DNA from: Alphaproteobacteria bacterium
GTDB lineage: Bacteria > Pseudomonadota > Alphaproteobacteria > Rickettsiales > JABDBP01
Assembly (NCBI GenBank): GCA_013288565.1
Contig: JABDBP010000005.1
Coordinates: 8,746 to 72,745 of the forward strand
Direction of reading: 5' to 3'
Length of the DNA: 64,000 nucleotides
Under the pieces are notes generated by a model. The model was not told where the DNA came from, made no database searches, and saw only the letters and a list, made by a program, of their open reading frames with translations. This document shows, piece after piece, positions 47,003 through 64,000 of the stretch; the stretch's first letter is position 1; the number at the start of each line of letters is the position of its first letter. Made by a program: the position numbers and the translations under genes.

Positions 47003-47443
47003 TCAAGCACCGCTAGCATATAATACCCCCTCCTCGCTTCTTCTGGCAACCAGCCCAGGTATTATCCGGCCTTTCGCCCGTACCCATTTCATCAATTCCT
47101 TCGGTACCATGTTATCATCCCCAGCATTGACTTTCCGCCGTAGGGTTGAACGCTGCAGTGCCGCGCCGCCGAGGTTATAAGTAAAAGAAATAAGCGCCGC
47201 CTCCTGCTCTGGCTTAACCACCCGTTTTATGAGTCTTTTCACCACCCGATCAGCTATTTCCGCATCCGCGGCCAGCAGTTCCAGCGCCTTATCCTCAGCC
47301 AGCGGTTCGGCTATATGTTCATTTGGGCATATTTTATGTCCGTAACCAATAGTTTTATACCCGGCAGGACACAAATACGATATAGCGGAAAACCCCTCGT
47401 ATTTTTTTATTAACGGAATGGAAAGTTCCAGGGATTGAAACAT
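47003..47443 (-). CDS. phage-type lysozyme (GH24 endolysin)
   Basis: 146 aa. LIKKYEGFSAISYLCPAGYKTIGYGH with the catalytic Glu context. Confidence 0.8.
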   Translation of the reverse strand: MFQSLELSIPLIKKYEGFSAISYLCPAGYKTIGYGHKICPNEHIAEPLAEDKALELLAADAEIADRVVKRLIKRVVKPEQEAALISFTYNLGGAALQRSTLRRKVNAGDDNMVPKELMKWVRAKGRIIPGLVARRSEEGVLYASGA

Positions 47444-47510
47444 GATGTTAATAATGAGTAATTGGTGATTATAGCCTGATTTATAATGATTATCCTTTCT
47501 TTACTTACAG

Positions 47511-47936
47511 CTAACCCCGCATCTTCAAAATCGCCCGTTGCCCGAAATAAAAGCTGATGATGCTGGCGAAAATGATTTGGTCATCGCCGGTCCAGAGGGC
47601 TTCCAGATTCATGTTCAACACATGGAACTGGAAAACCTTGATCCCGGCATAAAGCAGGAAGAAAAAATAGGAAAGCACGGGCCGGACGCTTGCGTTCAGC
47701 GCATCTACCCAGCGCACACCGCTGTTGTAGGTTTTGTATAATTCCTTGGCCACTTCGGTATCGGCGTTGATTTTTATTTCCTCCAGATGGTTCTGAAAAC
47801 CGAGCTTCTCCTGCTCCATCTGCATCTGCAATATGTCAAGCTCGTGCCTCCTATCCGCCGCGTCGCCGATCATGCGGAGGATTTCCGGGAATGCGGAGGT
47901 TAAAAATCCGAGGAGTGAGCCGAAGAATGTGAGCAT
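47511..47936 (-). CDS. putative holin (3-TM GTA-type holin-like)
   Basis: 141 aa. N-terminal hydrophobic segment, helical linker, two C-terminal TM segments. Directly upstream of the lysozyme. Family assignment is from memory only. Confidence 0.5.
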   Translation of the reverse strand: MLTFFGSLLGFLTSAFPEILRMIGDAADRRHELDILQMQMEQEKLGFQNHLEEIKINADTEVAKELYKTYNSGVRWVDALNASVRPVLSYFFFLLYAGIKVFQFHVLNMNLEALWTGDDQIIFASIISFYFGQRAILKMRG

Positions 47937-48178
47937 TATTTACCTCCCATGATAAGGCTTTTCAGCGCCACCCACAGTAAATACAAAACCGCAGGAATCA
48001 GCACCGAAATCACCGCAAGTTTGATCCGCTCGTCATAACCCTGGCTGGATTTCCTGAGACGGCGTAGATAAAGCAGGTCGGCTTGGGTTTCGTTGATCTG
48101 ACGTAGGTCGAACCCAAGACTAGCCAATGTTTCCTGCACCGCCTCGCGAACGATTTTCCTGATGTCGTTATTAGGCAT
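47936..48178 (-). CDS. small C-terminally membrane-anchored protein (possibly lysis-associated)
   Basis: Start at MPNNDIRK overlaps the upstream stop (TGATG). C-terminal TM VISVLIPAVLYLLWVAL. Its stop overlaps the holin start. Confidence 0.45.
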   Translation of the reverse strand: MPNNDIRKIVREAVQETLASLGFDLRQINETQADLLYLRRLRKSSQGYDERIKLAVISVLIPAVLYLLWVALKSLIMGGK

Positions 48179-48768
48179 CAGGCCAAATTCCCAATCAAAA
48201 TCCACGTATTAGTCGCGGTTTGTTTCAGCGTTCCACCCGCATATTGCCCAGCCAAGTGGGTTTTCGTATTATACGAATTGATGGTGACGCCGCTGCCAGG
48301 GGAAATCCCCACCTGCCCAGCGCCAAGCTGGGCTATGTCGATTTCCGCACCAGTCGGGAAATTCACGCTAGAATTAGGCGGAACGGTCAGTGTTATCGCA
48401 CTTGCATTATTAAGCGTAACCAGATTCCCGGAATCACCTGCCGCCAGGGTATAACTCGTTCCCGTCTGTGCGTTAATCGGCCTATAGCCCTGAATTTGCA
48501 TCGGCGTCGTAGCACCCTGCGTCACACCGTCGATGTTGCCGCCGATGATAGCCACGCTACTTGCGCTTTGCGTTGCGATTGAACCCAACCCAAGGTTTGT
48601 CCGCGCACTGCTAGCACTCGAAACATCCGATAAATTATTAGATGCCAGCAGATTCGTCACCCATTTCACGCCGAGTGGTTTCGTATTGTCTGCCGCTAAG
48701 GATTGGCCACTAGCCGCACCTTGCAGGCTGAACCATGTCCTGAGTTTTGGCCCGATTTCCCCGAACAT
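48178..48768 (-). CDS. phage tail-fibre-like protein
   Basis: 196 aa. NLSDVSSASSARTNLGLGSIATQSASSVAIIGGNIDG resembles a common fibre N-terminal motif. Confidence 0.55.
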   Translation of the reverse strand: MFGEIGPKLRTWFSLQGAASGQSLAADNTKPLGVKWVTNLLASNNLSDVSSASSARTNLGLGSIATQSASSVAIIGGNIDGVTQGATTPMQIQGYRPINAQTGTSYTLAAGDSGNLVTLNNASAITLTVPPNSSVNFPTGAEIDIAQLGAGQVGISPGSGVTINSYNTKTHLAGQYAGGTLKQTATNTWILIGNLA

Positions 48769-49188
48769 CTAGAAATCCCCGCCAATTGCATTAATGCTTA
48801 TCAGCTTCGCCGAGGTAACTGTTGTGAGCGCCGTGCAGGTGAGAGTAGCGCCGTTTTTCAAATACAGGTATTTATTCCCGTTGGCATCATAGGCAAGGCC
48901 AGGCACTTGAGGGTTCCTTAAAATATCCACTGACGGAAGGGCATTAGTATTCCCGGAATTTGCGGGAATGTTCACCGTGCCAAGCAAATAATTTGTGCTG
49001 CTGATCGTTATAAAAAAAGAAATGTCGCGTGCTGACGTATCGCTCGAAGCGACAACCAGTGTTTCGATTTTTGATCCATTAGCACCGGCTGTGGCTATGG
49101 TTTTACTATTTGATGCATCGGCATTTGCGATCTGCACAACATAATTCTGTATGGTTTGCGGAAAGATAGGCGTTGCGGTGACAGTCAT
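48769..49188 (-). CDS. hypothetical phage structural protein
   Basis: 139 aa, Thr/Ser/Asn-rich and beta-rich. Tightly packed between the DUF2793 and fibre-like genes. Confidence 0.4.
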   Translation of the reverse strand: MTVTATPIFPQTIQNYVVQIANADASNSKTIATAGANGSKIETLVVASSDTSARDISFFITISSTNYLLGTVNIPANSGNTNALPSVDILRNPQVPGLAYDANGNKYLYLKNGATLTCTALTTVTSAKLISINAIGGDF

Positions 49189-49190
49189 GG

Positions 49191-49865
49191 TTAAACTCCT
49201 CCAAACATGGTGTGATAAACAAGATTGATAGTTGGTAAATCGGCAACGGTTAATGCGCGAAATGTGGGTGCGGCGGCGCTGCCTGAAGCAGGCCCAGCAT
49301 AAACCGTATTGGCGTTTTCATTTGCCTTGGTGATGGTCAGGGTGCCCGAGCCGGTAATCGGCGAGCCGGAAACGCTGAATTCCGTCGGCATGGAAATAGC
49401 GACGCTGGTGACGGTGCCGCTGCCACCACCGGTCGCATCATGCCATTTTCCAGTGCCGGAATTATAAGTAAGCACGCTGTTGCTCGCGATCGAGCCACTC
49501 AAACTCACATCCCCCAGCACCGAAAGCGAAGAATTAGTAACGAACCAGTTCGTGCCGTTATAGGCGTAAATCTTGCCCTGATCTTTCACGAACAGGCTCA
49601 TTCCCGCATTCGGCACGATGAACTGCCATATCTGGTTATACCAGGCGATGTTATTCGCCTGCCCCGCCCATGCGCCAGTGGGACTCGCCGCCACTATATA
49701 TAAGTCACCGGGATTGGGAGATGATGGCGGCGTAGCAATGGTTATGCTTTTCGCCCCAGTATTCATTAGTGCATCTATCGTCGTCAATGCTTCATTGACA
49801 GTAATTTCTTTTTGTGCTTGATTCTGCTGGAGTAGGAAAAAACCTAGGTTATTTGAAGTGGTCAT
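49191..49865 (-). CDS. DUF2793-domain protein (GTA/phage-associated)
   Basis: 224 aa. N-terminal QNQAQKEITVNEALTTIDAL, PGDLYIV, and WYNQIWQFIVPNAGMSLFVKD, as recalled for DUF2793. Confidence 0.6.
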   Translation of the reverse strand: MTTSNNLGFFLLQQNQAQKEITVNEALTTIDALMNTGAKSITIATPPSSPNPGDLYIVAASPTGAWAGQANNIAWYNQIWQFIVPNAGMSLFVKDQGKIYAYNGTNWFVTNSSLSVLGDVSLSGSIASNSVLTYNSGTGKWHDATGGGSGTVTSVAISMPTEFSVSGSPITGSGTLTITKANENANTVYAGPASGSAAAPTFRALTVADLPTINLVYHTMFGGV

Positions 49866-49900
49866 ATTTTTTAACTCTTAATTTCAACTCTAAAGGAGCG

Positions 49901-50377
49901 ATGGTTATGAAAAAAGTTTCAGCAGTTGTTATTGTCACCAGTTTGGCATTGGTTTCCGGGCTTTGCCTGGCGGCATTCGATTCATCTGCGGCTAATAACG
50001 CGAAAAGGGAAGCTTGCGAAAGCAAACTTTCCGCCAAGGCACAAGACGAACTTAAAAAACGCCGCGCGGCTTTCGCCAGCCTTACCGCGGCAGAAAAGAA
50101 CGACGTAAAGGCCGCTCGTGCTGATAGCAGGGCTCAGTATTACAAGCTCTCCCTCCCGGCCCAGGCGATCTTAAAAGCGCAAAACCAAGGCAAAACGCCT
50201 AACGAATCGAATAAGGACGCGCTGAAGGAAGCCGCCTCCTACCAAACCTGGGAGAAGGAAAGGATTGGCAAACTTTCGGATAAAGAACAGACCGCCGCTA
50301 CTCCACTTTCTGCAGCTACCAAGCAGGAATTGATGACCAAATGCGGCTCAAGGAACCGCAATAGCAGCCAGTCCTAA
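49901..50377 (+). CDS. secreted helical hypothetical protein encoded opposite to the phage-like genes
   Basis: AAGGAG RBS. Signal peptide MVMKKVSAVVIVTSLALVSGLCLAAF. Lys/Ala/Glu-rich mature part. The 3' end overlaps the g15-like stop by 4 nt. Confidence 0.55.
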   Translation: MVMKKVSAVVIVTSLALVSGLCLAAFDSSAANNAKREACESKLSAKAQDELKKRRAAFASLTAAEKNDVKAARADSRAQYYKLSLPAQAILKAQNQGKTPNESNKDALKEAASYQTWEKERIGKLSDKEQTAATPLSAATKQELMTKCGSRNRNSSQS

Positions 50378-53300
50378 ATATTGGCACTCCCCGGCCAGCC
50401 GCGCCCAACGATTGCGGAAAGCTGGTAGACATTAACCGAAACGCTGCTTTGTAGACTGCCGAAATCGGTTGTCTGTAGGGTAGCGCTGTAATAGGCCGAA
50501 GGCGAGGTGATCCCGGAAATTGTCCTGACCACGTTGGTTCTATTCATAATATCCACGCTGTAGGCTTCTGTTTCCTCCGAAAGCGGAACATCTGAATAAT
50601 CCAGCCATGCGCCGCCAACCCGCGTCCTTCTTATCCAGTTCATCGTGAGATTCCCAGAACCGTCCCGCAATCCACTGATATTCACCGGTGAATAAGGTTT
50701 TAAACATAGTGCCTGATAGGTGAAATCCTGCTCGGTGACATCGCTCAAATCCTGCCCGAAAGTGCCGCCTTTGTATTGGCGCAAAACATTTATCAGCGCC
50801 GTTGGATAAGCCGTGGAAACTATGCTGTTATCAAGCAGCGTGAAATTTTCCCCCGCGGCATGGCTTGAAATCTGCCCTTCCGTCCCCAGCCGCCCGCGCA
50901 AAAGCGTACTCAGCATATATTTATTGGGCGCAACCAAAGTCGCATTCTGGAACTGGATTATTTCATTCCCGAGGAGTGCGGTGTTCGCACCATTCAGTAG
51001 CGAAAGCCGGTCGGTACTTGCCAATTCGCCGGAAACTAATATTACCGTAACCGTATTTATTATATCGAAAACACAATAATTTGCCGGCGCCGCGAGAACC
51101 GTCGAAGCCTGGCCTGTCGTCCCGGCAACGCTTATAGTGGCAATTGGCGAATATGAATTCCCGCCATCGTCAGAACGGAAAACCTTCGCTCCCGACCATC
51201 CGGTCTGCAACCCCGCACCGGAAAACCGCAGATACGGCTGGTTCCATGCATCACCGGGATATGCAGAAATATCCAGAATACCCAAATCGGTGGCTGCAAT
51301 GGCAGGAATCGCCGCCGTAGTAGGAGCAGCGACAACCGGGGTACTGTGAATATTATAAATCGAAATATTTTCCGCCACGCCCGTAACTTTGGTCACACCC
51401 GCCTTGGAATAATGCGCGTCGGTAATACGGATCGTATGCACCGCACCGTTATCTGCCGTGATCGTTATCACATCTGCTGGATCGAGATAACTATATTGCT
51501 GCGGCAAATAAAACTGATAGCTGGTCCGCCCCATCCAGTAACTGTAAAGCGTAGTATCAGCGATATTTTTTGCTTCCTGATCGGTCAGCACTATCGGCAG
51601 ATTGACGGTTAGCTTCGCCACACTTTCAGTGGTGATTTTTTCCGAATGCTGGTTGCATGGCTGATAATCGATGGCGTAGCTTAAATAATTCACGTCCACT
51701 TTCTGTGGCAGCGCAACTTCCATGTCGCGCTTGATCGCAAGCGGCATATCGGATTTATCGGTTCTGGCCAGGCTATCCTCCGCGATAGTCAGCGCCGAAG
51801 CATTACCGCGCGGGATAAATTTCAATATCCCGTCGGTTTCCACTGCATCGAAAAAATACGCCGCTTGCAAAGTTTCGATCGCGCCGCGGAAAGTTCCCTG
51901 CGAAACTATCGTGTACCCATCAACTTCCTGGGTGAGTCGGCTCACATCGAAATCGGTTTCTTGCATTCCGGCGCGCAGGCAAATATCGGCAACGATGGCA
52001 CCGAGATCGGAAATCCCGAGTTTCCCCTCCACCCAATGTCCATATTGCCACAGCGGACCGTCAGTCCACACATTCACCAGATTTGGCCAATAAGGAAACG
52101 GTCGGGCATCCCAAGTCCAGACGAATTTCTGCTGGATCATTGATGAACCAGCCCATTGCAATTCTGTGCCGATAAGGCCGATGCGCTGCGCCATGAAATC
52201 TATATGTCCCTGCGAAAAATATGGCAACCCGCCCTGTACTGAATTCGGATCATAAAAAATATTCGGCTGATTGGTCGCGCAATCGACGCTCGGGAACCCG
52301 TATTCGGTGAACCAGATCGGTTTGGAATTTGGCACCCAGGAAGTTATCGTGCTATCAGGGTTCACATGGTGATTACTCCACCACCAAGCAATGTTTTTCC
52401 AAGCGTAAGGCGCGGAAAGCGAAGCCTGGATGGTGCGTGGCGTGTCGGTATAATAAAAGCTCCATCCCTCCCCGCTCGTCCAGCCATTGATGACTTCCTG
52501 AACATTATAATCCTCCACCGTTTTTGCCGTCAGCGGGAAATATGCGTCAATTCCTACCACGTCGATATTCGATGATGCCCACAGCGGATCAAGGTTATAC
52601 CAGCCTCCGGTTGTATGATGATATTCACTCCAATCGGCAGCGTATGTAACCTTCACGCTTGAACCTAAAATTCCCTTCACCGTTGCTGCGAGCGATACCA
52701 GTGCATCCACCGCCGGATAATCGGTTCCAGTTCCCGCCACGCTAGTCAGCCCGATCAATTCAGAGCCGATGACGAACGCATCGACGTATCCGTTTACCAG
52801 ATTCGCATAGTGCTCAACGAAGGTGTTGTATCCGTTGGTTTTCGTGAAAAAATTCGCAACGTCGGTGGCACTTCCTGTCACTTTTCCGCGCCAGGGCTTT
52901 CCGGTCACGTCCATGAAAAACATCGGGTAGAACATGATTTTATAACCGCTATTTCTGAGTTGCGTCAGATAGCGTAAAACCCCGGCATCATTCGGTGTTC
53001 CGCCATAAATCGGATCACCGTTGGAATCTAGCGTAATCTGGTGCGCGGTTGAGCGCATGAAGCTTCCAACGCTCCATATATCCGGCTCGGTCGTAGCACC
53101 GGTTTGATATTCCACTCCCGGAACAATCGTGCAGCTTCCGGCATTGGTGGAATTCCCGAACCACGTCACCACCAGCGCCACCCACTCAACATTCGGCAAT
53201 GTCTGCTGCAACTGCGAAAGCGCCACCAACGAATCCGCCACGCCGCTGCCGTTATTCCGGTTTATCGGCACCGAGGTTCCACTCTGCGCGAATCCGCTGC

Positions 53301-54051
53301 CGACCGTTTCGCCCTCGACTTTGGTTTCGACGACTGTGTCGTACACAAATTCACCGGAGCCGGGGATCATCACGATACCGCTGATGATTTCTTCCAGCGA
53401 TTGCCCGCTGCCGTTATCCACGGGCTTCGCGCGCTTCTTCACCTCAAAAGTGAAATTCGGGATGCGGTTGCCAAACGCCGCCAACGGGAAATTCTCGACA
53501 AAAACATAAGCGAGCCCCCGATATGCTGGCGTCGTCCCCACGCCTTGCACGCTCTGGATATAAGTATCCGGCTCCTGCGTTTCGCTGCCGGTATAAACGC
53601 GGTACGTTCCCTGGCTGGTATCGAGTAGCAGCGCATCCGCCCAAATGCGGATCACTTCGTCGATTTGCCCTAAGCAAATCCCGATAGCCATAGTGACGGA
53701 ATAGCTGTAGGTGGTTTCGCTGTTCGATTGCACCAGCCCGCCGCCCTTGCCGCCGCCGATGGAAGTCGTCGTCGCGGTCTGATGAATCTGCTCTGCCCAG
53801 ATCACGTTCCCCGCCACGCGCATATTGCCGTAAACGATGGGAATCATTTTCCCGTAAGTCGAAGTCTGCACCGAAAGATCGGCGAGCTGTAAGCCCTGGC
53901 GCGACGCGGGAAGGATTTTATTATCGATGGCGTTGCCGACGTAAGTTGCGCCGATGCGCAAGGCGGAATTCAGGAACGGCCCGAAAATCCCGCCGCTGCC
54001 AATATCACCCGCCACCGCGCCAGCCGCTGCGGTTAAAATTAAAGTTGCCAT
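50374..54051 (-). CDS. RcGTA g15-like large tail/host-specificity protein
   Basis: 1225 aa. N-terminus MATLILTAAAGAV...QTSTYGKMIPIVYGNMRVAGNVIWA and a central TIM-barrel-like region (WFTEYGFPS), as recalled for GTA g15 homologues. Confidence 0.8.
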   Translation of the reverse strand: MATLILTAAAGAVAGDIGSGGIFGPFLNSALRIGATYVGNAIDNKILPASRQGLQLADLSVQTSTYGKMIPIVYGNMRVAGNVIWAEQIHQTATTTSIGGGKGGGLVQSNSETTYSYSVTMAIGICLGQIDEVIRIWADALLLDTSQGTYRVYTGSETQEPDTYIQSVQGVGTTPAYRGLAYVFVENFPLAAFGNRIPNFTFEVKKRAKPVDNGSGQSLEEIISGIVMIPGSGEFVYDTVVETKVEGETVGSGFAQSGTSVPINRNNGSGVADSLVALSQLQQTLPNVEWVALVVTWFGNSTNAGSCTIVPGVEYQTGATTEPDIWSVGSFMRSTAHQITLDSNGDPIYGGTPNDAGVLRYLTQLRNSGYKIMFYPMFFMDVTGKPWRGKVTGSATDVANFFTKTNGYNTFVEHYANLVNGYVDAFVIGSELIGLTSVAGTGTDYPAVDALVSLAATVKGILGSSVKVTYAADWSEYHHTTGGWYNLDPLWASSNIDVVGIDAYFPLTAKTVEDYNVQEVINGWTSGEGWSFYYTDTPRTIQASLSAPYAWKNIAWWWSNHHVNPDSTITSWVPNSKPIWFTEYGFPSVDCATNQPNIFYDPNSVQGGLPYFSQGHIDFMAQRIGLIGTELQWAGSSMIQQKFVWTWDARPFPYWPNLVNVWTDGPLWQYGHWVEGKLGISDLGAIVADICLRAGMQETDFDVSRLTQEVDGYTIVSQGTFRGAIETLQAAYFFDAVETDGILKFIPRGNASALTIAEDSLARTDKSDMPLAIKRDMEVALPQKVDVNYLSYAIDYQPCNQHSEKITTESVAKLTVNLPIVLTDQEAKNIADTTLYSYWMGRTSYQFYLPQQYSYLDPADVITITADNGAVHTIRITDAHYSKAGVTKVTGVAENISIYNIHSTPVVAAPTTAAIPAIAATDLGILDISAYPGDAWNQPYLRFSGAGLQTGWSGAKVFRSDDGGNSYSPIATISVAGTTGQASTVLAAPANYCVFDIINTVTVILVSGELASTDRLSLLNGANTALLGNEIIQFQNATLVAPNKYMLSTLLRGRLGTEGQISSHAAGENFTLLDNSIVSTAYPTALINVLRQYKGGTFGQDLSDVTEQDFTYQALCLKPYSPVNISGLRDGSGNLTMNWIRRTRVGGAWLDYSDVPLSEETEAYSVDIMNRTNVVRTISGITSPSAYYSATLQTTDFGSLQSSVSVNVYQLSAIVGRGWPGSANI

Positions 54052-54062
54052 AAATCTATTTT

Positions 54063-54086
54063 GTCATTCCGGCGAAAGCCGGAATC
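54063..54086. repeat. REP-type palindromic element overlapping the 3' end of the g14-like gene
   Basis: gtcattccggcgaaagccggaatc. On the minus strand it encodes the last codons (..SGFRLSPE) and the TGA stop of the NlpC/P60 gene. Confidence 0.75.
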
Positions 54087-54552
54087 CAGAATCAAAAAAA
54101 CTATAAACTCCGACGATTTTTTCCCGCCAATAATCATCCAGCCGGTGTTCTACCACCTGCCCAACCTGGCGGAAGCAATGGATTAATCCAAACCCACCGG
54201 GATAATCACTGATGATACCGAGATGCTGCGGATTGCGCCCGAATTTCAGCAGCAGAACATCGGCCATATCCATATTTTTCGCATCGACCGGATAGAGCAG
54301 ATTTTCTAATCTCTCCTGCAATTTTTTCCCGTTCGGAATGCGCGTATATGCGGTATCGTCGAACTGCGAAAGGAACGCACGGGATTTATTCTTGGGTGAG
54401 TGCATTTGCAAATCCCTGGCAACACCGACCAGTAGGCCCAAACAATCGCACCCGCCATGATTTGCCGCGGATTTTTTCAGGCGTCCCTGATGATGGAATT
54501 TCGTCCCGATCCAACTTCTTGCCTCGGTGATAATTTGTTCGCGTGTGGTCAT
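54064..54552 (-). CDS. NlpC/P60 family cell-wall peptidase (RcGTA g14-like)
   Basis: Start at MTTREQII (the earlier MTIAK codons come from the REP element). Motif GGCDCLGLLVGV with the catalytic Cys, and LGIISDYPG..LIHC with the His. Confidence 0.8.
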   Translation of the reverse strand: MTTREQIITEARSWIGTKFHHQGRLKKSAANHGGCDCLGLLVGVARDLQMHSPKNKSRAFLSQFDDTAYTRIPNGKKLQERLENLLYPVDAKNMDMADVLLLKFGRNPQHLGIISDYPGGFGLIHCFRQVGQVVEHRLDDYWREKIVGVYSFFDSGFRLSPE

Positions 54553-54562: not shown

Positions 54563-54634
54563 GTCATTCCCGCGCAGGCGGGAATCTATATTCAAGAATT
54601 CGTGGTTATGGATCCCCGCTTTCGCGGGGACGAC
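54563..54634. repeat. pair of REP-type palindromic elements in inverted orientation between the g13- and g14-like genes
   Basis: gtcattcccgcgcaggcgggaatc (54563-54586) and gatccccgctttcgcggggacgac (54611-34). Confidence 0.75.
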
Positions 54635-54635
54635 A

Positions 54636-56582: not shown

Positions 56583-56666
56583 AATTTTTTACTCCCCTAG
56601 CTAATAATACCACAAAATTCCAAACCCTTTGTAACACTTTTATTAAGATTTTTATCAGAACCATGT

Positions 56667-57077
56667 TTACCCCCTTGTGTATGTGATATTTCCAGCGCTT
56701 TGCAACGTGATCGAATAGATTTCCGCATCACCGTATTCCCCTGATTTTTTAAAGGAATTCACGGCAAAACTGCCGAGTAACGTGTCTCCATTGCCGAAAG
56801 TGAGCCGATAATCGTTGATGCCAGCGTTGAAGGCATTTTCCCTTAAATTTTCCTCCGCCGCCGAATTGGTGAAAATCCCGGAAGCGTCAATGGAAAGCGA
56901 CTGTATCCCGCCGGAAATCGCCCTTTGCCACTGGCCGGATTCTAGGTTGTTGCTGACCAGTATTTTATTGTTCAGCTTGAATTCGGTGGTTTTTAAGCCT
57001 CCGACGGTGGTGAAATTCTCTGGGCTTGCGCCGTCGCCAATCTGGAGCAGAAATAATGTACCGCTTTGCGCAGCCAT
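56667..57077 (-). CDS. phage major tail protein, TP901-1 family (RcGTA g9-like)
   Basis: 136 aa. GTLFLLQIGDGASPENFTTVGGLKTTEF....SGIF. Confidence 0.8.
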   Translation of the reverse strand: MAAQSGTLFLLQIGDGASPENFTTVGGLKTTEFKLNNKILVSNNLESGQWQRAISGGIQSLSIDASGIFTNSAAEENLRENAFNAGINDYRLTFGNGDTLLGSFAVNSFKKSGEYGDAEIYSITLQSAGNITYTRG

Positions 57078-57078: not shown

Positions 57079-57483
57079 TCAACCCTCCTCCGTCAGCGCT
57101 TTGAACTTCACGGCTGCCTCATAGGTCACGCCATCAGCCATACGTTTTATCTCTATGTTTTGAAAAGTGAGATTAGTTATGGTGTGCCCGGTCATGATGA
57201 TGGTCGCCCCGCGCAGCGTATCGGTCGCCCGCGAGATTATTCCGAGCAGAGCCGTGTCCTGCATATCGCGTGAATAGGCTTTCAAAGTTAGGCTGCACGA
57301 CGCTCCATTGCTGGTTTTGGTCGACCAATCGGCAGCAGTTATTTCGTTCACCACCAGATACGGAAACCCCGTCCCTTGCGGTACATATTCATAAATCCCC
57401 GTCACCATTGCGGTCAAAGTGGAATCGGCGCTAAGTACCCCGTAAACCGCCTTTTGCAATTGGAAAATTACGTCTGAACTCAT
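57079..57483 (-). CDS. DUF3168 tail-completion protein (RcGTA g8-like)
   Basis: 134 aa. LQKAVYGVLSADSTLTAMVTGIYEYVPQGTGFPYLV. Confidence 0.75.
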   Translation of the reverse strand: MSSDVIFQLQKAVYGVLSADSTLTAMVTGIYEYVPQGTGFPYLVVNEITAADWSTKTSNGASCSLTLKAYSRDMQDTALLGIISRATDTLRGATIIMTGHTITNLTFQNIEIKRMADGVTYEAAVKFKALTEEG

Positions 57484-57815
57484 GTGTCCATTTTCTCCCC
57501 TAATATCTCCAGCATTTCGTTTTTCAGGCCGCTGTTGATTATCGAACGGATGTTGTAGTAATCGCCGGAAAACGAAATCCGCATAGTGGGAGTCACGCCG
57601 TCCAGGTAGCGAATGGTGAAAGTTGCATACTGCACCTCCTCCATGTGGTCAGAATCGAATATTTCCCTGCCGGTTGCTGGCACCACTTCCGCCCAGACAG
57701 TCGCGAACGTATTCCAACTGGTGGTGAATCCACCAGCCCCGTTCGCGGTCATTGTCGGCGACTCAATAGTAATCTGCCGGTTCATGCGCGAGGCGAGATT
57801 TAAAATTCCGCTCAT
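57480..57815 (-). CDS. head-tail adaptor / head-closure protein (RcGTA g7-like, SPP1 gp16 family)
   Basis: 111 aa. MNRQITIE...WNTFATVWAEVVPATGRE...TFTIRY. Confidence 0.75.
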   Translation of the reverse strand: MSGILNLASRMNRQITIESPTMTANGAGGFTTSWNTFATVWAEVVPATGREIFDSDHMEEVQYATFTIRYLDGVTPTMRISFSGDYYNIRSIINSGLKNEMLEILGEKMDT

Positions 57816-58357
57816 ATCCTCATCACCTTATATTGGTCGTAAAGCGCGGTGATTGGGTCTTTCAGTGAAACACTCATTGAGCGGTTCTCATACATGTCAG
57901 CGATATGTGAAAGCATTCCGGTCAGAAGCGGCTGCGGCACGTTGGTTTCCGCGGCTCCATATCCTGCCTGGTAGGTGACTTGGATTTCGTGCCCAAGCGG
58001 TATCGCATCGAATACAACCACATCGCCCAGCGCACTCACATAATAGCTGGTAAAACTTTGCACACTGCTATCCCGGTGCACGATGTTCACCGAAGTCACC
58101 GATTGCACCGGCCCGCGGGGCAGGAAAACTTTCCTTGGGACGAAATGATCGTAGGAAAGCATCCAGGTCTGGGTAATGAATGAGCGCTTGGTGTAACTCT
58201 CAGCGATTTCCCTCGCCGCCGTGATCAGCCCGGTAATCAGGCTATCCTCGCTGGTAGTGCTCACGCGCAAATAGAGTTTGGTTTCGCTTAAGCTCAACGG
58301 CTCTATAGAGGGCGGCGTCACTAAAGTCAGCCCAGGTATGTGGTCATAATCAGGCAT
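57812..58357 (-). CDS. head-tail connector protein (gp6-like, RcGTA g6-like)
   Basis: Start at MPDYD. LSLSETKLYLRVSTTSEDSLITGLITAAREIAESYTKRSFITQTW. Confidence 0.75.
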   Translation of the reverse strand: MPDYDHIPGLTLVTPPSIEPLSLSETKLYLRVSTTSEDSLITGLITAAREIAESYTKRSFITQTWMLSYDHFVPRKVFLPRGPVQSVTSVNIVHRDSSVQSFTSYYVSALGDVVVFDAIPLGHEIQVTYQAGYGAAETNVPQPLLTGMLSHIADMYENRSMSVSLKDPITALYDQYKVMRI

Positions 58358-58359: not shown

Positions 58360-58554
58360 TTATTCCTTTATGTTTTTCTTGATAGGAACGGCACAACCGG
58401 CAGCGAAAAATGCCAGTGCCAAATAGTCGCGCACTTCGTATTTCTCGCCTGCCGTATATTGCTTGACGATACGCCCATCCTCAGTTCCCCTGCGGGTTTC
58501 CAGCATTTTTATCAGCATAATGAGTTGTGAGTGCAGAGTGAATCTACTCGGCAT
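58360..58554 (-). CDS. small hypothetical protein (extra gene between the capsid and connector genes)
   Basis: Up to 64 aa; internal starts at 58518 and 58506 are possible. Stop lies 2 nt before the g6-like start. No family recognised. Confidence 0.35.
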   Translation of the reverse strand: MPSRFTLHSQLIMLIKMLETRRGTEDGRIVKQYTAGEKYEVRDYLALAFFAAGCAVPIKKNIKE

Positions 58555-58577: not shown

Positions 58578-58994
58578 TTAATAAATAACCGGCTTGTAAG
58601 CCGCACTGCCTCTGAGCGAGGTGATACCGATGATGGTACCGTTGGTCATGGTACCGGTCTTGGTGGCTACAGCCTTCACGTAACGCTGCGAGCCGATATA
58701 GCCAAGCTTGTAGCTTGCTGAGTCCTGGCCGAGCGCCACGGTCACGCTGCTTACGCCCGCACTCATATCGCTGGTTGCCACGGCGGTATAGGTACCACCG
58801 CTGGTCGCGCATTCAGTGAGGCTGAGCGTCCAGTAGACGCTGCTGGAAAGAGTATCGCCCGAAGCGCCCATATTGAACAGCACGATAGCAGAATTGAATC
58901 CCTGCAAATCGATTGCCGAAGAAGTGACGGTTGCAGTCGCAACCGCCGGTGTGGTAACCTGCGTTACCGAAACGTTATCATATAAATCGCGCAT
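58578..58994 (-). CDS. hypothetical phage structural protein (extra gene after the capsid gene, possibly head decoration)
   Basis: 138 aa, Thr/Ser/Ala/Val/Gly-rich and beta-rich. Not part of the canonical RcGTA order. Confidence 0.5.
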   Translation of the reverse strand: MRDLYDNVSVTQVTTPAVATATVTSSAIDLQGFNSAIVLFNMGASGDTLSSSVYWTLSLTECATSGGTYTAVATSDMSAGVSSVTVALGQDSASYKLGYIGSQRYVKAVATKTGTMTNGTIIGITSLRGSAAYKPVIY

Positions 58995-59023: not shown

Positions 59024-59150
59024 GAGAGCGGTTTCAGATTGCTTTATGCTAGGAGCGCAAGTCCGAGCGAGCTGAGTGTACACTCAGCGTACATGAGCAT
59101 CGCGAGAGGCGAAGCGCGACGACGCAGAAAGCAAAAATGAAACCGCTCTT
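59024..59150 (-). promoter_or_regulatory. imperfect palindrome of about 127 bp (long stem-loop) immediately downstream of the major capsid gene
   Basis: Outer arms gagagcggtttcagattgctttatgc / gcagaaagcaaaaatgaaaccgctctt. Central perfect palindrome gctgagtgtacactcagc. Confidence 0.5.
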
Positions 59151-59153
59151 GGA

Positions 59154-60347
59154 TTAAGACAGCAGCAACAGCTTGATCGCCTCGAAATTGACGACGTCGC
59201 CGCCGGTTCTTTTCGTGGTATAGAAATTCACGAACGGTTTTTCCGTGAACGGATCGCGCAATATGCGGATGCCGATGCGATCAACAATCTGATACGCCTT
59301 GGAAAAATCGCCAAACACCACGGAAAGGCTTGCCGCCGTAGGCGAAGGCATGTCAGCCGCCAGTTTTACCGGCACGCCTAGCAGCGTATCGGGAGTTCCC
59401 GCCGCCAGGCCGGGTTGCCACATATATTGGTTGGTGGTAGTTTCCTTGAGAAGCCGCACCGCCTGGGTGGTAGCACGATTCATCAGGAAAGTCGCATTCA
59501 CCGTATATGGTTCTTTGAGGGTGTAATAAAGGGTGATTAGCGAGTCGGAAGTGATGACGCCGGAAGAACCGGTTCCGACTTGCTGGATTTGCCCCCAGTT
59601 CGTGCCACTTGCATAAGTCAAGATTCCGCGCGGCTGGCTGACGCCAGTACCGCTGACGAATGCAGTATTTTCCTTGCGCGAGAAATTATCGGCAAGTTTT
59701 CCCGCCAGCCATTTTTCGATGTCGATGCTGGAATCGTCGATCAATTTCTGCGTCGCTTTCGGCTGGGCATACAACTCATAGACCGGGATGTTTTTCTTAC
59801 CGATTTGCGGCGTCGCCGTATCAGCTACCGTCGTGGTTTCACCAGTCCAGCCAGAGGCTATATCGTTGATATCCTCAATGATGTCCAGCGAATCGCTCGA
59901 TATGGTTTCGACCGAGCAAATCTGGCGCATCGGCGAGGTTTCGAATATCGCCTGCACGATATTGCTAGATATTGTAGGTGTTACCAAATAGCCGCCGTCC
60001 GGGTCGCTGCCGACTGAAAGCGCCTTGGTTTCGAGTCGGGAAAGCCCGGATTCCGTGCCTTTACGCAAGTAATTACAGAAAGCGGTTTTATGTTCAGCAG
60101 CCAGGCCATCGTCGGCGAGGCCGTATTCTAGGGTTTTTGCCGGGCGGCGCATCGCCGTTTCCACTTTTGCGAGCCGGGATTTATGATTATCCAGAGCGTC
60201 GTTGATTTTATTAAGTTGCTCCAGCGTCAGCGGATCGGCTGCACCTTTGCGTTTGATTTCATCGAGCTTTCGCTCGTTGACGGATTTAAATTCCTCCCAG
60301 GCATGGCCTAGGGCATTCACCTTTACGGCAATTTCCGGATTTTGCAT
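59154..60347 (-). CDS. HK97-family major capsid protein (RcGTA g5-like)
   Basis: 397 aa. N-terminal coiled delta-like region and the GGYLVP-type motif (DPDGGYLVTPT). Confidence 0.85.
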   Translation of the reverse strand: MQNPEIAVKVNALGHAWEEFKSVNERKLDEIKRKGAADPLTLEQLNKINDALDNHKSRLAKVETAMRRPAKTLEYGLADDGLAAEHKTAFCNYLRKGTESGLSRLETKALSVGSDPDGGYLVTPTISSNIVQAIFETSPMRQICSVETISSDSLDIIEDINDIASGWTGETTTVADTATPQIGKKNIPVYELYAQPKATQKLIDDSSIDIEKWLAGKLADNFSRKENTAFVSGTGVSQPRGILTYASGTNWGQIQQVGTGSSGVITSDSLITLYYTLKEPYTVNATFLMNRATTQAVRLLKETTTNQYMWQPGLAAGTPDTLLGVPVKLAADMPSPTAASLSVVFGDFSKAYQIVDRIGIRILRDPFTEKPFVNFYTTKRTGGDVVNFEAIKLLLLS

Positions 60348-60361
60348 ATTTTTCCTTTTGG

Positions 60362-61015
60362 TTAATTGGTTAGTATTGATATGGCCCTGTCCAAAACGGC
60401 AGAAAGCTCATATATTTCCTCTTCCTCTCCAGCATCCCGCTGATCGGAAAAGCTTTCAAAACCGCGCACGGCGATCAATTTTGCCGCCTTACGCGAATAT
60501 CCTGCTTCCCGCAGGAAATCTTCGAATTCTCTGATCGTTGCTGGCGCGGATTTCAAACGGTTCACCACCGCATGCGGATTGGCCGGGAACGTCACCAGAC
60601 TTACTTCCCACAGTTCCACCTGCTTTAAAAGCCGCACTCCCGTCTTGTAATCAGTTTCGTAATCGACCGGCGTATAGCCAATGGAAAGGCCGTTTATCGC
60701 CCCGGATTTCAGCAACGCATAAGCCTCGCGCGCCCTTTGCACATCAAGCAGTAACCGGCCTTCCATATATAGCCCGAATTCATCCTCACGCATCTTGCTG
60801 ATAACGCCGATCGGCTCGTCCGGCTGGTGCTGCCATAGCAATTTTATCCCATTACCATTTCCTGCGATGGTTTTTTTAAACGCGCCTTTTAAAACTACAT
60901 CTTTCTGGCTGTCGATATTTCCGAAGACGCTGGCGTAACCGGCAAACGCGCCGTCATCAGCTATTGATTTCAGTTCAAGCGGGAAATCTAAATGTTTGGT
61001 TTCAAGTTTTTGCAT
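60362..61015 (-). CDS. HK97-family prohead protease (RcGTA g4-like)
   Basis: 217 aa. GYASVFGNIDSQKDVVLKGAF, LWQHQ, LSIGY. Confidence 0.85.
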   Translation of the reverse strand: MQKLETKHLDFPLELKSIADDGAFAGYASVFGNIDSQKDVVLKGAFKKTIAGNGNGIKLLWQHQPDEPIGVISKMREDEFGLYMEGRLLLDVQRAREAYALLKSGAINGLSIGYTPVDYETDYKTGVRLLKQVELWEVSLVTFPANPHAVVNRLKSAPATIREFEDFLREAGYSRKAAKLIAVRGFESFSDQRDAGEEEEIYELSAVLDRAISILTN

Positions 61016-61017
61016 GA

Positions 61018-62310
61018 TTATTTCTTTGTTGGGTTGGTATCCAAAATATCGCCGCCATTAATCGGGCTTAAACCAACTGACGCGCGTTTTTCGTTGATCG
61101 TCATAAAATTCACGCCCTGCAATTTCGACCATAATCCCTCGCGGCGCGGTGCCATCGCACTGATGTTATCGATGTCGATATCCAGGCAGAGATTCTCGCC
61201 GAACAGTGGCAGAAGCCAGCCGTTCAGGGCATTCGCCAGGCTTTGCAGCATCGGGATCACCGTCTGCTCCCATAGCGAAAGTTTTGCCTCGGCCATGTTG
61301 TTATAAGTTGAGTCGCCCGGAATCCCAAGCAGTTGCGGCGGTACACCGAATGCCAGCGCAATATCCCGCGCCGACGAATATTTGATGTTCAGAAAATCCA
61401 TGTCGCGCGGCTTCAGGCTCATTTCCTTCCAATCCAACCCGCCCTCAAGCAGCAGTGGACGCCCGGCATTTCTCGCGCTGGAATATTGATCGTCGATCTG
61501 CCCCTTCAGCCGGGTGAATTGCTCATCGCTTAAAGTCACCGCCTGGTTGTTGGCGTTTCTCACCACCAGCGCACCGCTAGGGCGTGCACCATTTTGCAAT
61601 AGCGACTGGTTCCATACCGCCGCCTGATTATGCTGATCAATGCTGTAAGCCGCCGCTTCCATTGGCGACAATCCATACCAATCATTCAGTGGATGGAAAT
61701 GTTTCAGGTGCAGTATCTCTGATTGCCCGGTCAGCCGATCCACTGGAAAATCTTTATAAATACCGTCATCGCCGACGGCATATCTATAAGCCTGCGGCAG
61801 GTAATTATTTCCTGCAATTAACGTCACGCGATCGGGCCGGAGCAGATATAATTCCGAAGGAGCACCCTCGCCGTCAATTCTTTGTATGTATGTGTTGCCG
61901 CTAATCATGCGGTAAATGAACAGGCTTTCGATGAATTCGTTACCGCCCATGCCAGGATTCGGCTTATCCAGCAAATCCAATACCGGATGCGCAGCTATTT
62001 GTTTCCTCGTACCGCCATCCGCCTGATATAATAACCAGGGAACGCTTGCCGCGCTTTGCGCCACCAGAGAAATCGAGCGGAACGCAATGACGTTACGGCT
62101 ATAACCCTCGTCGGAGAATTTCCAGTAATTCCTTGGTGTCCATACCGGCTCACCCGGCGCAGTGATATATGATTGGTAAGCGCTGGAAAGCAGGAATTCC
62201 GGTATCAAACCGAATTTCTTTCCCGCCAGCTTTCTCACTTTATCTTTCGCCCTGACGAAAATAGAGAATGGATTTCTCTTTCCGCTTTTTGAGTTAAGCA
62301 GATAATTCAT
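61018..62310 (-). CDS. HK97-family portal protein (RcGTA g3-like)
   Basis: 430 aa. Portal-like body with LLQNGARPSGAL and FGVPPQLLG segments. Confidence 0.85.
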   Translation of the reverse strand: MNYLLNSKSGKRNPFSIFVRAKDKVRKLAGKKFGLIPEFLLSSAYQSYITAPGEPVWTPRNYWKFSDEGYSRNVIAFRSISLVAQSAASVPWLLYQADGGTRKQIAAHPVLDLLDKPNPGMGGNEFIESLFIYRMISGNTYIQRIDGEGAPSELYLLRPDRVTLIAGNNYLPQAYRYAVGDDGIYKDFPVDRLTGQSEILHLKHFHPLNDWYGLSPMEAAAYSIDQHNQAAVWNQSLLQNGARPSGALVVRNANNQAVTLSDEQFTRLKGQIDDQYSSARNAGRPLLLEGGLDWKEMSLKPRDMDFLNIKYSSARDIALAFGVPPQLLGIPGDSTYNNMAEAKLSLWEQTVIPMLQSLANALNGWLLPLFGENLCLDIDIDNISAMAPRREGLWSKLQGVNFMTINEKRASVGLSPINGGDILDTNPTKK

Positions 62311-62429
62311 GCTCTGTCCTTGGATTAATTTTAGAAGGAGGAAGTAGTTTCAGGCGTTAATTTCGTAGCCTATATTTATCTTCTACTTGCGCTTTGAAAA
62401 ACGCGGAAGGGGAAATTTCTAAAAATTTT

Positions 62430-62756
62430 TCAGTGCATCTTTTCCATTACCCGAACGCCCAGCATTTCCAGTTGTTTCCGGGCGGAATCGGTGAGGCAGA
62501 TGGTGTGGATGTGCCAATCGCCGAAACTGCTTTCCTGGATGGAGTAATCTTCCGAATCGCTGAAATCGAGCCGGACGAATTCTTTTTCTAGGCGGACTAT
62601 GTTATCGACTTTTAGATCGGAATAATAGAAAGCAAATTTTTTTTGCAGATGATATTTTTTCCTGGTTTCATGATTGAAATACAGCCAGGAAACGTGCAGG
62701 CTGTTTATCGCCCGCGCCGATTCCGCCAATTCCGGTTGCTCGTATTGTTCCAGCAT
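62430..62756 (-). CDS. hypothetical protein inserted between the terminase and portal genes
   Basis: 108 aa, flanked by non-coding spacers of about 110-120 bp. A TATAAT hexamer lies in the upstream spacer. No family recognised. Confidence 0.45.
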   Translation of the reverse strand: MLEQYEQPELAESARAINSLHVSWLYFNHETRKKYHLQKKFAFYYSDLKVDNIVRLEKEFVRLDFSDSEDYSIQESSFGDWHIHTICLTDSARKQLEMLGVRVMEKMH

Positions 62757-62864
62757 TACGATCCGCTCCAGGTTAATGCTTCATTATAGTCCAAAATGGT
62801 TAACAAAAGGTTAATATCGGGATAAAAAATCATAAAAATTCAGGCATTTCGCCTCAATTTTTAT

Positions 62865-64000
62865 TCAAATGCTCCTTATCCGTGCCTGTCCTGGGGTTCG
62901 ACCAGTGATCCATTCCAGAAACTGACTGGTTGAATCCATCTGATCGTCATATTTCGTGCCAGGAAACCCGAAGATTTCCCTTTCATATTCAGCAAGCCAG
63001 ATGGCTTGCCGAGGCAAAAACACCTTTCCCGCCTCGATTAAACAACTGATTTTCGCCGCTCTTTCAATCTTACTAAGCGATGATTTGATAGCGATCACCG
63101 GCAGATTTTTTTTCTTCCGCAACTCCTGGATTAACGATTGCCCATTCGCCTGATCCTCAATCAAAATAGCCGCAGGCTTCCATTTTTCCGCCAGACCTAT
63201 CATCTCCTTTTTTAGCAACGGATATTCTAGTCGCGCGCGAAAAATATCCAGAAGATTATATCCTTCCACAGTTTCATTCCATATCGCACATACGGAAAAA
63301 TCGTTGTTTTCGCCGGTTTTTATCGCCGTATCCCAGCTTTGGAAAATCGTTCCGCTGGGCTTAGCGTCATATCGCCGGATCCATTCCGGATTTATCATAT
63401 TTCCACCAGCTGCTAGTGGATTCTGCTGATATTGCGCTGCAAACCCGCCCGAGCCCAAATCTTTTTTTGCCTTCTCAATTTCCTCGATATTTTCCCTTTC
63501 TGCCTGGAGCAATTCGCCTCGCTTCCTACCCATCCGCAATTTTCCGCGAGCATAAGTTTTCTTCTCTTCAGCGATTGCCGGAATCGCCAGGATTTCCCAG
63601 CCTTTTTCCGCCAGATGCCCACTCAAATCCTCCTCGTGCAACCGCTGCATCACCAGAACGAATACGCCTTTCTTCTTGTTATCGAGCCGCGTCGAAAAGG
63701 TTTTGTCAAACCATTCGATTACATTCCGACGCTTGGCGGCGCTGTTGATGTGGACCGGGTTGTGCGGATCGTCGATAATCAGAAAATTCCCGCCCTCGCC
63801 GGTAATTGAACCACCAACCGAGGTCGCGATTCTGTACCCGCGCTTTGTCGTCATAAATTTCGCTTTCTGGTTTTGCCCGCTGGCGATTTGAAACTCCGGA
63901 AAAACTTTTTTATACCAATCGGAAGTCACCACCCGGCGACAATCAAGCGAATGCTTATTGCTTAAACTTTGCGCGTAGCTGGCTGCAATTACCCGTCGCG
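62865..64000 (-). CDS. phage terminase large subunit (RcGTA g2-like), 5' end outside window
   Basis: The frame stays open from the listed GTG (63932) to the window edge (..IAASYAQSLSNKHSLDCRRVVTSDWYKK). Also GGNFLIIDDPH and a nuclease domain. Confidence 0.85.
   Translation of the reverse strand, partial: RRVIAASYAQSLSNKHSLDCRRVVTSDWYKKVFPEFQIASGQNQKAKFMTTKRGYRIATSVGGSITGEGGNFLIIDDPHNPVHINSAAKRRNVIEWFDKTFSTRLDNKKKGVFVLVMQRLHEEDLSGHLAEKGWEILAIPAIAEEKKTYARGKLRMGRKRGELLQAERENIEEIEKAKKDLGSGGFAAQYQQNPLAAGGNMINPEWIRRYDAKPSGTIFQSWDTAIKTGENNDFSVCAIWNETVEGYNLLDIFRARLEYPLLKKEMIGLAEKWKPAAILIEDQANGQSLIQELRKKKNLPVIAIKSSLSKIERAAKISCLIEAGKVFLPRQAIWLAEYEREIFGFPGTKYDDQMDSTSQFLEWITGRTPGQARIRSI

Follow-up and report, generated by a model that had tools for sequence, protein, structure and literature searches.

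Gene transfer agents (GTAs) of the Rhodobacter capsulatus type (RcGTA), which are also found in Ruegeria, Leisingera and Sulfitobacter, carry a conserved succession of portal, protease, capsid, g6, g7, g8 and g9 genes and, further on, g12, g13, g14 and g15, whereas their fibre and lysis genes lie at separate loci. The RcGTA tail fibre, Rcc00171, is a DUF2793 protein, and its homologue in the siphophage RDJL Phi 1 stands immediately downstream of the g12-g15 homologues (Hynes et al. 2016). Large clusters with at least nine homologues were found only in 'Clade 1', and only small clusters in Rickettsiales, Rhodospirillales, Micavibrio and SAR116 (Shakya et al. 2017). GTA gene sets maintained by selection have been described in Rickettsiales and Holosporaceae, in which the head and portal genes and those for distal tail, hub and megatron are kept and other tail parts are missing, and repurposing was suggested for these reduced clusters of endosymbionts (George et al. 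2022, PMC9254644). Here, we analysed a stretch of 64,000 nucleotides, hereafter the window (C5:8746-72745; contig JABDBP010000005.1 of assembly GCA_013288565.1), from an alphaproteobacterium placed among the Rickettsiales in GTDB. Its minus strand carries the structural genes of a phage-like cluster of about 17.6 kb, which spans from window position 47003 to approximately 64594. In the searchable literature, we found no description of a contiguous cluster of this kind, fibre and lysis genes included, from these lineages.

We consider it rather probable that the cluster is a chromosomally fixed, phage-derived, GTA-like element that has been kept by its host, and not a decaying prophage. A first-pass annotation of this DNA had left the choice between an alternative GTA architecture and a defective prophage. 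The former fits better, because no integrase is present, the site is fixed, the genes have diverged together with their flanks and purifying selection acts on them, even though the element does not belong to the canonical RcGTA lineage. On our best reading, the element appears GTA-like in all that a sequence can reveal, yet it would have arisen independently, and its tail-assembly slot is unorthodox.

Chromosomal site, divergence and promoter

Gene identities were obtained from Pfam, NCBIfam and PHROGs searches of the open reading frames (ORFs) of the cluster. Integrase, repressor and replication families gave zero matches among the ORFs in or beside the cluster in these searches, serine recombinases being covered solely via Pfam scans of ORFs of at least about 70 residues, and there was no PF00589 tyrosine recombinase on the window contig. 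No direct repeat of 11 bp or more was common to both borders, and thus no att-like repeat was found. The early claim that no integrase, repressor or replication gene is visible in these 17 kb holds and extends past position 64000. There, a g1 or small terminase gene, an integrase and att sites had been thought of; what was found is a basic 114-aa ORF that overlaps the start of the large terminase gene TerL (64250-64594, outside the window), a candidate small terminase called g1-like by size and position only, followed by host genes, with neither an integrase nor an att repeat. The assembly comprises 1.34 Mb in 42 contigs, is about 70% complete and has a GC content of 48.6%, compared with 50.2% for the cluster; positions 49154-62592 are identical in an independent Logan assembly of run SRR8424233.

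Comparison across related genomes, as proposed with the first-pass annotation, found the same site occupied in two other lineages, with host-like divergence against L321/L322. In the window genome, the lysozyme gene is followed by a pilin-like gene and then by TrxB, AhpC and CcmB, and 5' of the g1-like ORF, outside the window, lie a PQ-loop protein, then LepA and then a metal ABC transporter. In G001, a 100% complete genome from another genus of the same family, one contig carries LepA, two inserted genes, the g1-like ORF, TerL, a homologue of the small protein orf108 and the genes from the portal to g9. Another contig of G001 carries g15, the fibre, a homologue of the 89-aa protein orf89, a holin-like gene, the lysozyme, two pilin-like genes, TrxB and AhpC. 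The JGI contig L321/L322, from a closer relative, holds g8, g9, the same tape-measure slot, g12-g15, the same opposite-strand ORF, the fibre, the orf89 homologue, the holin-like gene and the lysozyme, flanked by pilin-like, TrxB, AhpC and CcmB genes. The trxB-side flank is common to the window, G001 and L322, and the lepA-side flank is shared with G001 only, so that conservation of the site rests on the three to four available lineages. The interval between trxB and lepA in the relative G027, tried as an 'empty site', holds only host genes and was rejected as an empty site in the strict sense.

Nonsynonymous and synonymous divergence (dN and dS) were estimated by NG86 between the window and L321/L322, or L319 for TerL, portal and capsid. 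The element genes compared with L321/L322 (g8, g9, g12-g15, orf89, lysozyme and the histidine-rich ORF of the tape-measure slot) gave dS of 0.84-1.56 and dN/dS of 0.027-0.15, and the flanking host genes trxB, ahpC and ccmB gave dS of 0.98-1.23 and dN/dS of 0.04-0.07. The equal dS of element and flank points to co-divergence with the chromosome, and the low dN/dS, 0.016-0.15 across the structural and lysis genes, to selection acting on each gene, those for lysis and the slot gene among them. For the g1-like ORF, dS was saturated and no ratio could be computed. In the comparison with G001, dS was saturated for element and host genes alike, with dN of 0.25-0.61 and all ORFs open, and dN/dS is therefore uninformative there.

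These comparisons bear on the possibility that the element is still a mobile phage or satellite, one that obtains its integration and replication functions in trans, or from genes encoded elsewhere, and that repeatedly hits the same site. It could draw on the position of TerL far from, or downstream of, the tail genes in G003, G036 and G014, on an integrase 8-10 kb beyond the lysis genes in some relatives, on the g12 and g13 copies of G001, which are not the closest relatives by identity, and on the differing left flank of L319. However, both borders adjoin host genes without an att-like repeat, and a dS equal to that of the neighbouring host genes is not expected from repeated recent insertions. 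The g15 tree pairs the window with G001 as sisters (SH-aLRT, Shimodaira-Hasegawa-like approximate likelihood ratio test, 94-97), and G001 has only two tyrosine-recombinase matches, open frames of about 300-310 aa that are Xer-sized, none of them at the element. We give continued mobility a very slim chance.

A defective prophage, that is, a temperate siphophage that lost its integrase, lysogeny, replication and tape-measure modules and whose remainder is decaying, could account for the missing tape measure and chaperones and for the split fibre gene described below. Related elements are often fragmentary or pseudogenised (G012, G013, G019, G005 and G040), true prophages with the same modules exist, and the baseplate of the G001 copy is rearranged (L016, G001:C33, 876-3951: g9, a 230-aa protein, g13, g14 and g12, with a DUF6973 gene after g12 at the contig end), although its ORFs are intact. 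In the window, however, every gene is intact and evolves at dN/dS of 0.016-0.15 at a dS of about 1, equal to the flanking host genes. The ORFs also remain open relative to G001 despite saturated dS, the gene in the tape-measure slot is under strong constraint, and an internal promoter is kept in three lineages. Decay of a prophage remnant seems improbable to us.

The internal promoter is of the CtrA type. TTAA-N7-TTAA(C) is the established CtrA site of Alphaproteobacteria. In the spacer between TerL and orf108, 42 nt upstream of the latter, the coding strand carries such a promoter (62783..62814, minus strand), which consists of the box TTAACCTTTTGTTAAC at 62799-62814, 10 nt and TATAAT at 62783-62788. 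A terminator-like hairpin, an inverted repeat with 14-nt arms that are 93% complementary (62832..62864, minus strand), immediately follows the TerL stop. The genome contains 99 copies of TTAA-N7-TTAAC, where about 12 would be expected, and these show an extended consensus GTTAAC..TTT.TTAACC (GTTAAC-N6-GTTAAC(C)), about 10 nt and a TATAAT-like hexamer. Among the genes with such a site upstream are ftsZ, mnmG (with two), those for a PilB-type ATPase and sensor kinases, and dozens encoding unknown proteins, as recognised from the sequences of the downstream genes, and the 99-site class probably represents this organism's CtrA regulon. In G001 and L319, the same box, 10 nt and -10 element recur at the corresponding spot despite saturation at neutral sites, and the CtrA equivalog scores above its curated cut-off in G001, G027, G037 and G003. 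We infer that CtrA would bind and control the promoter between TerL and orf108. Farther upstream, at about 64600-64640 (C5:73345-73385), lies a near-perfect, AT-rich palindrome of 16 nt, TTACCAATAAATAATG ... CATTATTATTGGTAA, with 5 nt between its end and the start codon of the g1-like ORF; it is not conserved in L319 or G001.

Long residence had been deduced in the first-pass annotation from repetitive extragenic palindromic (REP) sequences said to have colonised the intergenic spacers. Only the g13/g14 spacer holds a dispersed element, a host REP-like double hairpin (54568..54635, no strand assigned) with two GC-rich hairpins of the form [T/C]CCCGC-N4-GCGGG[A/G] and about seven further copies on other contigs, and none was found in any other cluster spacer tested. 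Long residence is nevertheless supported by synteny and by the matching synonymous divergence; it is the REP argument that shrinks to a single spacer.

The competence gene comEC adds little and carries no discriminating signal, because it is near-universal in the order: ComEC is intact in the window genome and present in all 41 of 41 relatives, with or without the element. It has stop codons in only two genomes (G012:C14:33881-34327 and G019:C1:1716563-1717411), both of which keep only decayed remnants of the element. The remaining 39 relatives, among them G013 and G005, which have decayed elements but intact comEC, have the gene intact or truncated only by a contig end. The decay of comEC alongside that of the element is anecdotal.

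Relation to gene transfer agents and phages

The element shares with RcGTA-type GTAs the order of portal, protease, capsid and g6 to g9, then g12 to g15, a g15 protein that passes the GTA_megatron model, the absence of integrase and replication genes, a fixed site under purifying selection, a small g1-like ORF upstream of TerL and a CtrA-type promoter motif. It contains 11 recognisable RcGTA homologues, in addition to the g1-like ORF recognised by position only, and would hence count as a 'large cluster' by the measure of Shakya et al. 2017. The canonical GTA order from large terminase to g15 that had been read from the sequence is confirmed for g3-g9 and g12-g15; it fails in that TerL is non-homologous, g10, g10.1 and g11 are absent and extra genes (orf108, orf138 and orf64) are present. 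A further difference is that the fibre and lysis genes of the window lie in cis.

For comparison, Rhodobacterales clusters (Leisingera, Ruegeria, Sulfitobacter, Phaeobacter and others) were gathered by a class-wide capsid search and a second locus search. The identities to them by tblastn were 42% for the portal, 46% for the protease, 44% for the capsid, 44% for g12, 35% for g13, 31% for g14 and 32% for g15. True phages gave 46% for the portal, 41-43% for the capsid, 41-49% for g12, 39-46% for g13 and 31-34% for g15. The identities to GTA proteins, between 30 and 46%, are thus no higher than those to true phages, and the identities to siphophage proteins equal or exceed them. In the capsid tree, the window falls in a 100%-supported clade of its order, which joins Azospirillum phage Cd at 99% support, and, on the other side, the GTA capsids of Rhodobacterales make up a long-branched clade of their own. 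The g15 tree unites all elements of the order in one clade and groups the Rhodobacterales GTAs with RDJL Phi 1, RcDormio and MW202777. Both trees are quick maximum-likelihood searches with SH-aLRT support only, in which the GTA clade is represented by Rhodobacterales alone; within these limits, the element appears not to descend from the classical RcGTA lineage. Two findings had been named beforehand as speaking against the GTA reading, and they came out differently: the structural genes group with phages rather than with the GTA clade, but no integrase, repressor or replication module lies upstream.

Azospirillum phage Cd has the closest named capsid, with 43% identity, and an orf138 homologue directly after its capsid gene, but it is a complete 62-kb phage with another terminase, portal lineage and tail. 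The siphophages offer the closer parallel in layout. Fibre and lysis genes beside g15 had been taken as a peculiarity of this cluster among GTAs, yet this is the ordinary layout in RDJL Phi 1, RcDormio and MW202777. The GenBank record of RDJL Phi 1 has the fibre gene directly after g12-g15, and that of RcDormio has g12-g15, three ORFs and then holin and endolysin. The complete metagenomic phage MW202777 runs from terminase, portal, protease and capsid to tube, chaperone, tape measure, g12-g15, fibre and muramidase, then to replication genes. In these phages and in the prophages G009:C1 and G036:C2, as in the window, g12-g15 are directly followed by a DUF2793 fibre gene; RcDormio and MW202777 also have lysis genes after the fibre, and MW202777 matches the whole order from terminase to lysis. 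The siphophages differ in that they carry replication, lysogeny or integrase genes, chaperones and tape-measure genes of 1.9-3.1 kb, none of which the window element has, and in that the latter occupies a conserved host site and has a synonymous divergence like that of the host genes.

Within the order, a single g13 protein query found no related loci, and an alignment of the relatives' g13 was needed. With it, g13 was detected in 32 of 41 genomes, often in multiple copies, up to seven. Most copies have DUF2793, the orf89 homologue, the holin-like gene and the lysozyme a few kb beyond. Some are true prophages, their integrase lying 8-10 kb past the lysis genes (G009:C1, G036:C2 and G018:C7); no integrase lies near the element in G037, G003, G014, G030, G038, G027, G034 and G028; and decayed elements occur in G012, G013, G019 and G005. 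An ORF at a contig end of G012 was tried as a g15 and rejected; near trxB, all that is left in this genome is decayed DUF2793 and holin-like pieces. The related metagenome-assembled genomes carry the NCBI labels Rickettsiales or unclassified Alphaproteobacteria.

The reduced GTA clusters of PMC9254644 resemble the element in their small-genome alphaproteobacterial hosts outside Clade 1, in purifying selection without an intact prophage context, and in the retention of head and portal genes along with those for distal tail, hub and megatron while other tail components are missing. They differ in that the window cluster is one contiguous, near-complete locus that includes the tube, the fibre and a lysis cassette. 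The endosymbiont-type capsids of the class-wide sample probably form a clade other than that of the window, and the hosts studied here, with pili and many sensor kinases, would seem to be free-living or facultative.

Gene content and the tail-assembly slot

All structural genes described in this section lie on the minus strand. The packaging end of the cluster begins with TerL (62865..64253, of which 62865..64000 lie inside the window), a 462-aa protein matching Terminase_6C and TIGR01630 with a dN/dS of 0.069 against L319. It gave no tblastn match, even at E = 10, in phages MW202777, RcDormio, RDJL Phi 1 and Cd; among phage terminases, those of Roseobacter phages CRP-901/902 come closest, at 39%. 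The window terminase thus appears to belong to a lineage other than RcGTA g2. Between TerL and the portal lies orf108 (62430..62756; dN/dS 0.096), a lineage-specific small protein without a Pfam, PHROG or NCBIfam match, whose only homologues found are in G001 (44%) and L319 (60%). The g3-like portal (61018..62310) matches Phage_portal at E 3e-86 and has a dN/dS of 0.083 against L319, and is followed by a g4-like prohead protease (60362..61015; Peptidase_S78; dN/dS 0.11) and a g5-like major capsid protein of the HK97 type (59154..60347; Phage_capsid, E 6e-85; dN/dS 0.096 against L319). In L319, a DUF488 gene is inserted between the orf108 homologue and the portal (6135-6971), and ORFs of 232 and 124 aa are inserted between portal and protease (8414-9493), the structural genes being undisrupted.

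After the capsid comes orf138 (58578..58994; phrog_5707, E 4e-23; dN/dS 0.12), a conserved phage protein outside the RcGTA gene set, which has homologues in relatives and in phage Cd and is possibly head-associated. A small conserved ORF, orf64 (58360..58554; dN/dS 0.26), separates it from g6 and has tblastn matches of 38-69% at the same position in many relatives. The connector region consists of a g6-like head-tail connector (57812..58357; Phage_connect_1, TIGR02215), a g7-like head completion protein (57480..57815; Phage_HCP) and a g8-like tail completion or terminator protein (57079..57483; Tail_completion_gp17; dN/dS 0.07), and it is followed by the g9-like tail tube protein (56667..57077; Phage_tail_2; dN/dS 0.064).

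The gap between g9 and g12 is only 572 bp, and the g10, g10.1 and g11 genes are absent from the cluster. In their place, the tape-measure slot (56124..56664) holds two ORFs that overlap by 80 nt. ORF53 (56503-56664), with a hydrophobic N-terminus, begins 3 nt past the stop of g9; ORF152 (56124-56582), which is histidine-rich, has a dN/dS of 0.062 against L321. At approximately 56510, a run of eight adenines (A8), CAAAAAAAAT, is followed by a run of seven guanines, and seven adenines instead of eight would fuse ORF53 and ORF152 into one 178-aa protein. The junction resembles a frameshift site of the chaperone type or a slippage-prone tract. The region is the same in the independent Logan contig. 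The slot ORFs match no Pfam, PHROG or NCBIfam family, and the histidine-rich ORF152 has no homologue in the large protein database because the gene call of its sole relative is broken by a run of N: L321 has 10 N at the position of the A8 run. In a DNA alignment with L321, the ORF152 frame is conserved with in-frame indels. The conserved histidine-rich slot protein, of about 150-180 aa, may be a very short, diverged tape measure.

The slot of G001 contains an unrelated protein, the 230-aa one after g9, and shortened tail modules arose repeatedly in this bacterial order. In L124 (G040:C6, 8155-9158) and L152 (5745-6834), g8 adjoins g12 with no tube, chaperone or tape-measure gene between; TerL of G040 is on a separate contig.

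Such an unorthodox tail, with a histidine-rich protein instead of a standard tape measure, invites the alternative that the particle has been domesticated for a purpose other than gene transfer, for example as a killing or adhesion particle, a capsid loaded with protein or metal, or a device for host interaction. The secreted-protein and pilin-like genes that travel with the cluster would agree with it, as would the repurposing that George et al. 2022 (PMC9254644) raise for similar reduced clusters. However, the terminase, the g1-like ORF and the portal are retained, and the constraint on terminase and portal (dN/dS 0.07-0.08) indicates that DNA packaging matters. The strongly constrained holin-endolysin cassette (0.016-0.15) fits release by lysis as in GTAs, and ComEC is intact. 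We regard a purpose other than transfer as rather unlikely.

The baseplate genes are of the RcGTA type. The g12-like distal tail protein (55495..56094; DUF2460, E 1e-77; dN/dS 0.037) is followed by a g13-like baseplate hub (54636..55484; Phage_phiJL001_Gp84_N and Phage_BR0599; dN/dS 0.095) and by a g14-like cell-wall peptidase of the NlpC/P60 type (54064..54552). The peptidase matches phrog_329, and TIGR02219 at 58.6 bits, below the cut-off; its sequence contains the GCDCxGL and HxG motifs, and the G001 orthologue matches NLPC_P60. The g15-like megatron (50374..54051; 1225 aa; GTA_TIM, Phage-tail_3 and Rcc01698_C; dN/dS 0.055) scores 1102 bits against the NCBIfam equivalog NF048004 GTA_megatron, for which the cut-off is 800.

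The first-pass annotation had also listed a DUF2793 protein, a 139-aa protein, a fibre-like protein, two putative membrane proteins and a GH24 lysozyme after g15, and the family searches bear this gene content out. The N-terminal part of the Rcc00171-like tail fibre (49191..49865; DUF2793, E 1e-26) is 88% identical over residues 1-143 to the single 361-aa fibre of L321. The C-terminal, receptor-binding-like part of 196 aa (48178..48768), the last 100 aa of which match the C-termini of phage fibres and minor tail proteins, is 82% identical over residues 43-196 to the C-terminus of that fibre. Between them lies orf139 (48769..49188), within a stretch of about 830 bp that is absent from L321; it has no family match and no tblastn match in G001 or any other locus. 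All three ORFs are open; where they meet, they abut or share a few bases.

For lysis, an 89-aa protein with one transmembrane helix at residues 63-81 (orf89; 47936..48205; phrog_6420; dN/dS 0.027) is a candidate lysis accessory, holin or antiholin. The 141-aa holin candidate (47511..47936) matches GTA_holin_3TM at E 1.3e-3, below the cut-off, phrog_6637 and, weakly, the holin family phrog_3427; it has three hydrophobic stretches by eye, and a hydropathy scan at a threshold of 1.6 flagged no transmembrane segment. Its dN/dS is 0.016 at a dS of 2.3 against L321/L322. The GH24 endolysin (47003..47443; Phage_lysozyme, E 1e-33; dN/dS 0.15) has an intact E-x8-C-x5-T triad.

Two further genes travel with the cluster. 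On the plus strand between g15 and the fibre gene, a small secreted protein of 156 aa (49907..50377), rich in Lys, Ala and Glu and with a signal peptide, is kept at the same place in L321 with a dN/dS of 0.29; at this spot, G001 carries an opposite-strand ORF of 366 aa that is unrelated to it. The gene is probably cargo, and the spot looks like a cargo slot. The pilin-like gene (46067..46894, minus strand), which carries the N-terminal methylation motif N_methyl and may be host flank or cargo, follows the lysozyme directly and on the same strand in three lineages (the window, L322:10001-10777 and G001 L111:9054-10617), in G001 in two copies. In L122 and L128, pilin-like N-terminal matches adjoin g14.

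Points of doubt and biological meaning

Several observations weigh against the reading of this cluster as a host-kept GTA. Its TerL gave no tblastn match, even at E = 10, to the TerL of four Rhodobacterales GTA loci (Leisingera, Ruegeria and Pseudosulfitobacter), and its capsid and g15 fall outside the Rhodobacterales GTA clade. The g10, g10.1 and g11 of L130 (G027), a relative that has the typical set with a tape measure of 185 aa, found no match anywhere in the window genome, which is about 70% complete. Barring slippage by ribosome or polymerase or the use of an internal start, the A8 run interrupts the slot gene, and the fibre, a single gene in L321 (361 aa) and G001 (421 aa), is split in the window into the DUF2793 part, orf139 and the C-terminal part. 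The left flank is not conserved in L319. Integrase-bearing, multi-copy prophages are among the close relatives of the structural module, which makes the phage origin recent on the scale of the order. Finally, the curated model did not find ctrA in the assembled approximately 70% of the window genome, where a CtrA probe of approximate sequence gave only 36% matches, and CtrA-type boxes occur also in relatives of unknown status. In another subclade (L162:10814, L174:8165 and L179:5925), a TTAA-N7-TTAAC box with a -10-like element stands about 70-80 nt upstream of g15. Boxes of host type thus recur within these elements at various positions, and the motif alone is no proof of domestication. For the window lineage, doubt is genuinely warranted by the absent chaperones, the frameshift-like A8 run and the split fibre.

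With these doubts in mind, we still favour a host-kept, GTA-like element, and its parts suggest how it might work. The g1-like ORF and TerL would package DNA, and an HK97-type head, connectors and a tail tube would be built from the same locus. With the RcGTA-type baseplate (g12-g15), the DUF2793 fibre and its own lysis cassette, this one locus might build, arm and release particles, and the element encodes no means of its own excision, integration or replication. Transcription of orf108, the portal and the remaining structural genes most likely starts from the CtrA-type promoter just downstream of TerL, which could thereby tie expression to a host cell-cycle regulator, as in known alphaproteobacterial GTAs. 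A conserved histidine-rich protein stands in place of the usual tail chaperones and tape measure. Particle formation, as well as the packaging and transfer of host DNA, would follow from such a set of parts. The origin may be sought among the temperate siphophages endemic to this order, which share the layout of tail, fibre and lysis genes; descent from them, and not from the classical RcGTA lineage, would mean an independent domestication. The full proposal is more tentative: possibly, the cluster is an independently domesticated, self-contained GTA in an order of Alphaproteobacteria that branches deeply, has small genomes and lies outside 'Clade 1', with one locus, a CtrA-type promoter and a histidine-rich protein, perhaps made via A8 slippage, in place of chaperones and tape measure.

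If the element is functional, GTA-type domestication of this phage morphotype would have happened more than once, and the cluster would offer a single-locus model in which dispersal of the fibre and lysis genes has yet to occur. The histidine-rich slot protein raises the question of how tail length and assembly might be set without the canonical set of chaperones and tape measure. The relatives would then form a natural series of true prophages, integrase-less intact clusters and decayed remnants, which could be used to study how a phage becomes an organelle-like device of its host. If the GTA reading is true, the same bacterial order would present the transition from phage to GTA at several stages.

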